Source: Escherichia coli (GTDB lineage: Bacteria > Pseudomonadota > Gammaproteobacteria > Enterobacterales > Enterobacteriaceae). Taken from it: a stretch of 64,000 nucleotides of DNA. The notes under the pieces were generated by a model, which made no database searches, was not told where the DNA came from, and worked only from the letters and a program-made list of their open reading frames with translations. The position numbers were made by a program, and so were the translations under genes. Within the stretch, counting starts at the first letter, position 1. Each line of letters opens with the position of its first letter. Below, one piece after another: positions 10,620-11,285 of the stretch. The DNA lies in assembly GCF_016026235.1 (NCBI RefSeq), contig NZ_CP065613.1, one strand, 5' to 3'.

Positions 10620-11069
10620 TCAATTTATGAGCGATATGGCATTGATTGACTTGATGACCGCCCTCTGTATGTCTGCAACCAACTCATGTGGCAAACATTG
10701 ATTAAGATACCCTCTGTAAGTTCTTGCTCTGTTTAATCTGTTTCGACTGACTTGTTGTACCAGGTCGGCTTTGGCCCAACGAATCTGCTGATCAAAGAAT
10801 TGCAGGTCATTGATAATATTACTGGCTATTTCAACATGCATTCCACGATTTAACTTGTCATGGTCGCGAGTGGTTGATAATGGAACGACGATACATGCGT
10901 TGCCATTAATTTTTCCGTTGAGCACGACAACTAACCTGTTTTTTATCATTTCAGGAGGAATGCGGCCATCGTAATACGTCGTGCTGAACGGTCCATTTTG
11001 GCTAACAGGATAGTTACCAAAGTTGCATTCCAGTATTTCACCAACCTTAGGGCTGAAATTAATCGCCAC
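10620..11069 (-). CDS. yifN: PemK/MazF-fold toxin-like protein (YifN)
   Basis: Track ORF 10620..11111; likely start GTG at 11069 after AAGGAGAGG SD, giving MAINFSPKVGEILECNFG...; MazF-like pattern (G-E-I..., KNRLVVVLN, CIVVPLSTT). No antitoxin ORF adjacent on either side. Confidence 0.7.
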   Translation of the reverse strand: MAINFSPKVGEILECNFGNYPVSQNGPFSTTYYDGRIPPEMIKNRLVVVLNGKINGNACIVVPLSTTRDHDKLNRGMHVEIASNIINDLQFFDQQIRWAKADLVQQVSRNRLNRARTYRGYLNQCLPHELVADIQRAVIKSINAISLIN

Positions 11070-11285
11070 GAGTAAACCTCTCCTTAGTAAACTCTGAAAA
11101 AGTAATAACACAACGTTACGACCCGGTTTTTTCTAAGTCTAATGGATTCACGATGAACTCCGATTTCGGTCTTCTCTCTCTGATTTAAACATCCGCAGCC
11201 AACCGGTTAGCGGCTTACACGCGGTCACATTCAAATGCGATTCTGCTACAATCCTCCCCCCGTTCGAAGATTGAGCAATACACCT

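Follow-up and report, generated by a model that had tools for sequence, protein, structure and literature searches.

The gene yifN lies between ppiC and rep in a 64,000-nt stretch of Escherichia coli DNA (contig NZ_CP065613.1, assembly GCF_016026235.1; hereafter the window), in the E. coli-type order ilvC-ppiC-yifN-rep-gppA, and raises the question of how a bacterium tolerates a gene for a toxin-like protein that has no antitoxin gene beside it. An earlier note on this DNA described yifN as an orphan of the PemK/MazF family, the product of which might be catalytically dead, controlled in trans or held by a non-protein antitoxin. A MazF-like gene without an antitoxin is in itself ordinary because solo toxins are common; they make up a large share of the annotated toxins of toxin-antitoxin (TA) systems, and the question of how cells cope with them is a long-standing one. 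Small RNAs have been raised as possible antitoxins for them (Makarova et al. 2009, PMC2701414). The gene examined here turns out not to be an orphan: together with a small RNA (sRNA) gene at 10588-10518 it makes up a strictly conserved module of two genes, and this RNA is a candidate antitoxin of YifN.

A small RNA gene directly downstream of yifN

When the 300 nt 3' of the yifN stop codon were compared between loci by all-against-all blastn, a conserved non-coding element was detected at nearly every locus. In the window it lies directly 3' of yifN, outside the coordinates covered by the earlier note, and the features concerned are the following.

10620..11069, minus strand: yifN coding sequence, 149 aa, GTG start at 11069-11067, TGA stop at 10622-10620 (open reading frame (ORF) listing and translation)
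11077..11085, minus strand: Shine-Dalgarno (SD) sequence AAGGAGAGG, 7 nt 5' of the yifN GTG (read from the sequence)
10595..10623, minus strand: sigma-70 promoter of the sRNA gene, with -35 TTGACA at 10623-10618, a 17-nt spacer and -10 GATAAT at 10600-10595
10588..~10518, minus strand: yifN-associated sRNA gene, ~70 nt, GUAGCCCAUAGAGGCCCUAAGUUUUCUCCCCUUGAGGGACCUGCGAAGCCCGGAUUUUCCGGGCUUUUGC (blastn of flanks, nhmmer and covariance model)

The promoter agrees with the consensus at 11 of 12 positions and is the best promoter-like site between 10350 and 11350; a sigma-70 scan of this same interval recognised no promoter-like site upstream of yifN. The -10 hexamer ends 6 nt before the conserved G start of the RNA, and the TGA stop codon of yifN (10622-10620) sits inside the -35 hexamer, an embedding that is found again in several distant genera. 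A promoter of the form TTGAC(A)-16/17 nt-(-10) stands at a constant distance from the GUAGCCC start in 29/29 loci, with a mean of 9.5 matches out of 12, and in Shewanella the sRNA unit as a whole has an inverted orientation with respect to yifN. With its own promoter and terminator, this inversion, and its expression, the downstream RNA is an independent sRNA gene.

Evidence of expression comes from Romero et al. 2014 (Mol Microbiol 94:963, PMC4681348), in whose study of K-12 global and differential RNA-seq together with a northern blot revealed an sRNA 'downstream of yifN on the same strand', at a level that varied with the medium; most of the novel sRNAs of that study have Class I transcription start sites. 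The K-12 sRNA and the RNA described here are alike in position and strand, and the former was presented as a new transcript only, without structure, conservation, partner or function. The legend of Figure 7 in that paper gives the gene as 'yifN (b3775)'. MG1655 as now annotated (NC_000913.3 3959532-3960460, locus L077) has ppiC as b3775 and yifN as b3777, but both the name yifN and the description 'same strand, downstream' agree with the sRNA found here. No Rfam 15 family matches the RNA (the best, rnk_pseudo, scores 20.3 bits against a gathering score of 55, and the others are terminator-only matches), it is absent from the MG1655 RefSeq feature table, and no paper connecting it with YifN was found in the literature.

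Two other identities for the element were considered and rejected. A peptide-coding role is contradicted by in-frame stop codons in the sense direction (UAG, UAA) and, on the antisense strand, by the loss of the ATG in Pseudomonas, and an integron attC site by the lack of R'/R'' core sites and of cassette arrays (by inspection). At one Chimaeribacter locus (L017, 4001-4501 / 4490-4571) a yifN ORF of 166 codons enters the sRNA by 12 nt, so that its stop codon lies within hairpin 1 and the coding region and the RNA gene physically overlap.

Co-inheritance of yifN and the small RNA

One copy of the sRNA was found by nhmmer in 41 of 47 sequences, the misses being a locus without yifN (L002), a yifN remnant (L046) and four divergent loci (L039, L041, L043 and L044). 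A covariance model (CM) of the RNA, designated R1, gave one full-length match directly 3' of yifN in 33/33 non-redundant loci (37-95 bits), all with a full-length or near-full-length yifN and with the four divergent loci among them. In the window, R1 scores 79.4 bits (E 1e-17), and this is the single full-length match in the 64 kb. The model had no match in the yifN-less locus of JJ1887 or next to a yifN remnant of 66 codons, and none of the loci searched had an intact yifN but lacked the sRNA.

R1 also matched the sRNA of two plasmids, pCAR1 and an IncX1/F plasmid of E. coli, and of three viral contigs that resemble prophages; the span of the module thus takes in gamma- and betaproteobacterial chromosomes, plasmids and prophage-like contigs, and reaches from Cupriavidus to E. 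coli. Beside more distant relatives of yifN (L071, L073, L075 and L081), divergent versions of the sRNA are visible by eye. That of L081 carries CGC-CUUAGA-GCG and UGC-CUUAGA-GCA behind TTGACA-17 nt-TATATT, and contig L075 ends just as the start of the sRNA, ...GTAGCCCT, appears. In the reverse direction, an RNA-only pattern searched over a metagenome collection returned 21 matches, of which 20 have yifN, intact or broken, immediately upstream, the last being a chance match inside a coding region. A viral scan with the enterobacterial RNA pattern gave 0 matches. From these sequence comparisons, yifN and the sRNA almost certainly constitute a real, compact and horizontally mobile two-gene module that is strictly co-inherited.

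The module of pCAR1 is set in a conjugative plasmid with long arrays of small genes of no assigned function and a DNA methylase. In a tiling-array study of this plasmid (PMC2642839), a 150-nt 'ncRNA1' is listed as highly expressed from the strand opposite to that of ORF81, which is the plasmid's yifN homologue. Identity of this transcript with the sRNA was considered and rejected, as it lies on the opposite strand and 27 nt away: ncRNA1 occupies 4618-4768 of locus L069 (NC_004444.1, record positions 85720-85870), and the predicted sRNA record positions 85976-85897. Either ncRNA1 is a second small transcript convergent with the module, or the strand or position in the array data is offset. Weak extra CM matches were also seen on the opposite strand upstream of the yifN homologue in L071 (329-415, minus; 26.9 bits) and L068 (2709-2791, minus; 21.5 bits), and are possibly terminators or possibly degenerate second copies.

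Structure and covariation of the small RNA

The predicted structure of the sRNA consists of two short hairpins and a terminator.

10574..10585, minus strand: hairpin 1, GCC-CAUAGA-GGC, sRNA nt 4-15
10550..10562, minus strand: hairpin 2, (U)CCC-CUUGA-GGG(A), sRNA nt 27-39, preceded by a U/C-rich linker
10519..10546, minus strand: intrinsic terminator GCGAAGCCCGG/CCGGGCUU(U)UGC followed by a U run (RNAalifold, CM alignment)

Hairpin 1, with a 3-bp G+C stem, begins at nt 4 in 34 of 35 tabulated RNAs, and at nt 6 in the hand-cut stretch from L071. Its stem is GCC/GGC in most cases, GGC/GCC in L043 and L071, CCC/GGG in L044 and CGC/GCG in L081. Hairpin 2 follows about 25-30 nt after hairpin 1 and has a covarying stem (CCC/GGG, UCC/GGA, GCC/GGC, GGC/GCC and UGC/GCA). 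The loops hold to a C-U-N-(N)-G-A pattern, seen as CAUAGA, CAUUGA, CUUGA, CUAGA, CUUUGA, CUUCGA and CUUAGA, and some betaproteobacterial versions of the RNA have three or four hairpins. The terminator closes both the sRNA and any read-through yifN transcript; its stem shows compensatory changes in 6 of 9 pairs by RNAalifold, and in the CM alignment 9 of 12 pairs change on both sides, with 96% of cells paired. Taken over all of the structure, 92% of cells are paired, compared with 31-60% for slid partners, 14 of 19 pairs change on both sides, and 0/500 shuffles reach the observed values. The single-sequence fold has a free energy of -27.8 kcal/mol (z -2.7). An alternative fold, in which the 3' halves of hairpins 1 and 2 pair with each other, is the minimum free energy structure of the single sequence, and was rejected because UUCC/GGAA-type changes in Xenorhabdus keep hairpin 2 and break the alternative.

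In diverged lineages both hairpins have shifted together, to two copies of GGC-CUUUGA-GCC in L071 and two of GCC-GCAA-GGC in L073, and in Serratia a G is missing from both loops. Such concerted change suggests a single reader, and would be expected if one protein surface reads both hairpins. Conserved loops on covarying stems likewise make a pattern that is typical of protein-read hairpins.

The same features bear on a different possibility, that the sRNA is a base-pairing regulator, acting either in a type I-like manner on the yifN mRNA or in trans on other mRNAs with yifN as a passenger. Its outline is that of an Hfq-type sRNA, with a U-rich linker followed by a terminator hairpin and U tail, and by eye a C/U-rich stretch of the E. 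coli RNA, UCUCCCCUU, pairs with the SD sequence AAGGAGAGG at 8/9 positions. This stretch, however, is half buried in hairpin 2, and the conserved parts of the RNA are hairpin loops and stems, not a single-stranded seed. RNAduplex, applied as a coarse test to the first 45 nt of the sRNA and the yifN start region (-80 to +60), found pairing no better than with shuffled targets (mean z -0.33, 24 loci), and no pairing site is common to all of the loci. With no overlap between the two genes there is no cis-antisense arrangement, and YifN is not a small membrane peptide like the toxins of type I systems. Regulation by base-pairing therefore seems improbable.

Two side observations concern the hairpins and the terminator. 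On a TARA ocean contig (L075, 178-720 / 922-1386), a distant YifN-like gene stands directly after a gene for Cas6f/Csy4, and hairpin 1 (GCC-CAUAGA-GGC) loosely resembles the hairpin of type I-F CRISPR repeats, which is CUGCC-GUAUA-GGCAG; the resemblance may be a coincidence. In MG1655 grown for 1000 generations under simulated microgravity, a C->T change was fixed 121 nt upstream of ppiC and 78 nt downstream of yifN (PMC5460176). This position converts to the 5' arm of the sRNA terminator stem, at about 10541-10544 (+/-2 nt), and since the window has T at 10542 the register is uncertain.

Expression of yifN and the absence of a protein antitoxin

The reading frame of yifN is much as the earlier note had described it: the strong SD sequence lies 7 nt from the GTG, the 149-aa ORF is unbroken, and the quoted motifs GEIL, KNRLVVVLN and CIVVPLSTT all occur in the translation. 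A Ribo-RET study (bioRxiv 10.1101/520783) reports initiation on yifN at the annotated start and at one upstream in-frame start, and the gene is therefore translated in E. coli. A candidate for the second start is present in the window.

11109..11111, minus strand: alternative in-frame GTG upstream of the yifN start, adding 14 residues to give a 163-aa isoform (ORF listing)

This GTG may be the upstream start of the Ribo-RET study, the signals of which suggest two isoforms of YifN.

No antitoxin-sized ORF flanks yifN on the same strand. Among ORFs of at least 25 aa, the longest has 32 aa.

11234-11148, same strand as yifN: 28-aa ORF with a TTG start, upstream of yifN
10557-10459, same strand as yifN: 32-aa ORF with a TTG start, downstream of yifN
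10465-10385, same strand as yifN: 26-aa ORF overlapping the start of ppiC

The comparison was extended to 37 loci found via the YifN protein, 35 of them from species-representative genomes together with metagenome and plasmid loci. Flanking ORFs of at least 30 aa at these loci cluster only as antisense shadows of yifN or through synteny between close relatives, which excludes them as a shared antitoxin. 'ORFs' that abut yifN on its upstream side in Pseudomonas loci were also rejected, as they are rich in Arg, Pro and His, look like translations of non-coding sequence and have relatives only in near-identical loci. Across about 40 related loci there is no shared neighbour protein, and the contexts are unrelated: in Serratia the neighbours are a MetQ-like lipoprotein and a MerR regulator, in Roseateles a WYL regulator two genes upstream and an oxidoreductase downstream, and in Pseudomonas plasmid genes of no assigned function. 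Nor do the clustered flanks contain a third conserved gene, such as an effector or sensor. The claim that no protein antitoxin adjoins yifN thus holds in the window and in about 40 related loci, by ORF listing and flank clustering. The further proposal of a non-protein antitoxin is favoured by the evidence, but the place suggested for it, 11070-11285 upstream of yifN, was wrong, as that region is not conserved between genera; the 300 nt 5' of yifN share nothing beyond close relatives, and an RNA or operator there was discarded as a candidate.

It could still be argued that YifN is a true orphan or decaying toxin, that the downstream element is only the terminator or 3' untranslated region of yifN or an unrelated neighbour, and that the protein is tolerated as poorly expressed, as benign, or as controlled in trans by another antitoxin such as MazE or ChpBI. 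The lack of a promoter-like site before yifN, the dispensability of a gene that is often broken, and the general abundance of solo toxin genes (PMC2701414) would agree with this. If the element were just a terminator, however, one would not expect its own promoter, a GUAGCCC start and two hairpins with conserved loops to persist from Cupriavidus to E. coli, or the element to be inverted as in Shewanella; in addition, YifN is under clear purifying selection, and ribosomes initiate on yifN in E. coli. An orphan is for these reasons very unlikely.

YifN as a probable MazF-type endoribonuclease

The assignment of YifN to the PemK/MazF family was borne out by domain, model and annotation. The protein matches Pfam PF02452 (PemK_toxin) over residues 38-141 (model positions 15-108 of 109; i-Evalue 1.5e-10), its homologues bear the same precomputed PemK domain, and in other strains the same ORF is labelled 'type II toxin-antitoxin system PemK/MazF family toxin' by the RefSeq Prokaryotic Genome Annotation Pipeline. 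An AlphaFold2 (AF2) model computed from a 24-sequence alignment has a predicted local distance difference test score of 78.7 and a predicted template modelling (TM) score of 0.74, with low confidence confined to the long beta1-beta2 loop (residues ~21-40). When the model was compared with the PDB by Foldseek, ranks 1-39 were all MazF (E 1.4e-5 to 4e-3; target-normalised TM 0.66-0.78), followed by CcdB and then, weakly, by the type III toxin CptN (4rmo_A, E 0.025). By model and structural match alike, YifN has the SH3-like barrel of the MazF/Kid/CcdB fold with a C-terminal helix. Its extended beta1-beta2 loop, at about residues 17-38, is roughly 16 residues longer than in MazF.

Purifying selection on YifN is clear across genera: an alignment of 24 diverse members of the family, with 44-85% identity, has 23 invariant columns, among them E40, K43, R45, P63 and S65. 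The counterparts of MazF E24, R29 and T52 are E40, R45 and S65, which are invariant across the family. In this register, obtained with hhalign against E. coli and B. subtilis MazF and by manual adjustment, PPEMIKNR45 stands opposite SEQAGHR29 and VVPLS65 opposite CVPCT52 of E. coli MazF; such profile-to-single-sequence alignments are statistically weak, and the catalytic mapping relies on motif register and fold. R29 and T52 of MazF have catalytic roles. With its fold conserved and residues equivalent to the catalytic Arg and Thr (Ser) retained, YifN looks like a competent MazF-type RNase and not a dead enzyme, and the suggestion of a catalytically inactive protein appears unlikely.

Searches of NCBIfam and PADLOC with YifN gave no match, and searches of PDB sequences, with the single sequence and with the profile, gave chance matches only and detected no relative. 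The phage family phrog_15698 (function not assigned) also matches YifN, and IMG names the homologue family 'uncharacterized protein YifN (PemK superfamily)'. Homologues are hosted by Enterobacterales, Pseudomonas, Aeromonas, Shewanella, Xanthomonas, Legionellaceae, Cupriavidus and Roseateles. The clade is small, with 30 representatives at E<=1e-30 among 1.84 billion cluster representatives.

A candidate RNA antitoxin

What the RNA does for YifN is less certain than the linkage between them. The reading preferred here, to which we give a little less than an even chance, is that the sRNA is a direct RNA antitoxin of YifN that would act in a type III-like manner. Inhibition by RNA-protein binding is suggested by the strict co-occurrence of the two genes, the conservation of the loops together with covariation in the stems, and the concerted change of the hairpins. 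More specifically, and somewhat more tentatively, the pair may represent a new class in which a MazF/PemK RNase is neutralised by a downstream two-hairpin sRNA, with one hairpin for each protomer of the dimer. YifN, by homology, would be an active dimeric MazF-type endoribonuclease, and each of the two (sometimes three or four) near-identical C-U-N-N-G-A hairpins would dock in one RNA-binding site of the dimer as a pseudo-substrate that is cleaved slowly or not at all, thereby blocking the enzyme. The near-consensus promoter of the sRNA, set against the lack of a recognisable yifN promoter, could keep the RNA in excess, and any transcript reading through from yifN would end in the sRNA sequence. 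Loss of the module, or a drop in sRNA synthesis, would be expected to leave YifN free to cleave cellular RNA, and the outcome may be addiction on plasmids such as pCAR1 or an abortive-infection type of defence. A precedent for RNA control of this fold exists in the type III toxins ToxN and CptN, which share a Kid/MazF-like fold, and the pattern of decay, in which the protein half is broken and the RNA kept but never the reverse, fits the inhibitor model.

The main rival is that YifN and the sRNA form a ribonucleoprotein with another role, in which the RNA is a substrate, cargo or cofactor of the protein. YifN might process or stabilise an sRNA that acts elsewhere, or the RNA might direct or license a sequence-specific RNase against phages or plasmids. 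Linkage, hairpin repeats and conserved loops would suit any specific protein-RNA pair, and the occurrence of the module on conjugative plasmids (pCAR1) and in prophage-like contigs, the phrog_15698 match, and the one distant homologue that adjoins a Cas6f/Csy4 gene would all sit well with such a function. The retained MazF catalytic pair and the repeated loss of the protein with the RNA kept, however, point to a nuclease in need of restraint, and neither a PADLOC defence family nor a third conserved effector or sensor gene is associated with YifN. A ribonucleoprotein of this kind is judged unlikely, though less so than either base-pairing or an orphan toxin.

Several points weigh against inhibition of YifN by the RNA, or soften the evidence for it. 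The computed evidence fits an inhibitor, a substrate and a cofactor alike, and the sRNA is organised differently from the known type III antitoxins, which are tandem repeats of at least 34 nt, upstream of the toxin gene and processed by the toxin. In the scan that went from RNA to protein, almost all of the matches are E. coli-like, so that this direction of the linkage is less general. The alignment used for covariation was fitted to the proposed structure and the CM alignment leans towards it, while only four divergent sequences show covariation in hairpin 1, which is otherwise almost invariant. That the sRNA is highly similar among E. coli strains follows from their short divergence times and is no evidence of selection, and many strains have the sRNA with a broken yifN, or neither, which makes the module dispensable. 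Lastly, no experimental report on YifN was found in the literature.

Comparison with known systems

In its protein half, the module is like the type II systems MazEF, PemIK (Kid-Kis) and ChpB, with which YifN shares the PF02452 toxin domain, the fold and the acidic/Arg/Thr-Ser positions (E40, R45, S65); occurrence on both plasmids and chromosomes and frequent loss are further likenesses. It differs in that yifN has no MazE/AbrB, ribbon-helix-helix or other antitoxin gene in about 40 loci, its neighbour being an RNA gene, and in that YifN forms a small separate clade with a longer beta1-beta2 loop. Because there is no protein antitoxin, the module falls outside type II.

In its logic, the module most resembles type III. 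As in ToxIN, CptIN and TenpIN, a Kid/MazF-related RNase is found beside an abundantly transcribed non-coding repeat RNA, here one built from repeated hairpins; the systems are mobile and plasmid-borne, and direct inhibition of protein by RNA would be expected in the yifN module as well. YifN, however, belongs to the PemK family of Pfam and not to ToxN, CptN or TenpN. Its sRNA is encoded downstream and has its own promoter, whereas type III RNAs are co-transcribed from upstream of the toxin gene with a leaky terminator between, and it is one RNA of ~70 nt with 2-4 hairpins of about 12 nt in place of tandem 34-45-nt repeats. With a different toxin family, a downstream RNA with its own promoter and no tandem array, the module lies outside the described type III families. 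It is not type I either, as there is no duplex support, the genes do not overlap, and the 149-aa protein has a soluble-type MazF fold.

A further comparison can be made with the solitary MazF of Myxococcus xanthus (MazF-mx, controlled by MrpC) and other 'solo' toxins, where a mazF-family gene likewise lacks an adjacent mazE and control by a non-canonical partner is the solution proposed. The candidate partner of yifN, in contrast, is encoded next to it and is co-inherited across phyla-level distances, and is therefore not a host transcription factor acting in trans.

The yifN gene, its annotation and its pseudogene status in K-12 were already known; what is new is that this clade of the MazF family has a dedicated, expressed and unannotated sRNA partner. 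To the long-standing question of solo toxins it offers a concrete answer that is testable in E. coli itself. If the inhibitor model is true, a fourth family would join the RNA-protein class of TA systems, MazF-fold toxins could switch between protein and RNA inhibitors, and a two-hairpin inhibitor design matched to a dimer would be revealed. The 'solo' MazF toxins of the YifN clade would then not be solo, and the type III principle would reach into the classical type II superfamily. Searches for antitoxins that consider ORFs only would be missing such partners, and annotation would change. Whatever the mechanism, yifN and the sRNA form a clearly delimited mobile pair, which about 74% of complete E. 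coli genomes carry and which also occurs on catabolic and virulence plasmids.

Distribution in E. coli and the ppiC-rep site

Allele counts were made over 5426 complete E. coli genomes. K-12 carries a -1 frameshift in yifN through loss of the A that matches position 10860 of the window; MG1655 lists yifN (b3777) as a pseudogene, and a K-12-like genome is annotated as 'frameshifted'. The earlier note was therefore correct in calling the K-12 copy frameshifted. The remark that an intact copy is notable was not sustained, as at this site the intact allele is found in 2783 genomes and the K-12 allele in 1228. Other lesions in yifN occur in E. coli and Shigella proteins and contigs. A frameshifted or truncated yifN with the sRNA kept is found in K-12, in several E. 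coli contigs from metagenomes, and in Serratia (L026), Rahnella (L045) and Photorhabdus (L022).

A 115-nt segment comprising the sRNA and its promoter is present in 4015/5426 genomes, with at least 99% identity in 3845 of these. Alignment with JJ1887 gave the extent of the variable segment.

10438..11269, no strand: yifN/sRNA segment, 832 bp, with the ppiC- and rep-proximal spacers

This segment is present in 3982-4015 of the 5426 genomes, and the remainder match the ppiC end only. In about 26% of E. coli it is replaced by a 54-bp sequence (JJ1887, L002 6039-6092); in the roughly 1400 genomes without the locus, the ppiC-rep spacer is 86 bp, as in JJ1887. The spacer is thus dimorphic, at 864 bp with the module and 86 bp without it, and the sequence common to both forms is limited to 16 nt adjoining ppiC and about 16 nt ahead of the rep ATG. 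With so little shared, the promoter and 5' untranslated sequences of ppiC and rep differ between the haplotypes, and these two housekeeping genes could be regulated differently in them.

Superficieibacter carries the module at the same site as E. coli, and other genera carry it elsewhere. A functional link to rep was rejected, since only these two genera have yifN beside rep; the neighbourhood marks an insertion site, and the proximity to rep is incidental.

A remote relative was noted on a Vibrio phage-like element (L070, PQ189291.1, 2375-3420), where a PemK-like protein with 27% identity to YifN is encoded. It has no convincing sRNA match (10.6 bits) and is preceded, after a 20-nt gap, by a LexA/S24-peptidase-like gene. 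It looks like a separate, protein-partnered branch of the superfamily that is carried on small Vibrio mobile elements.

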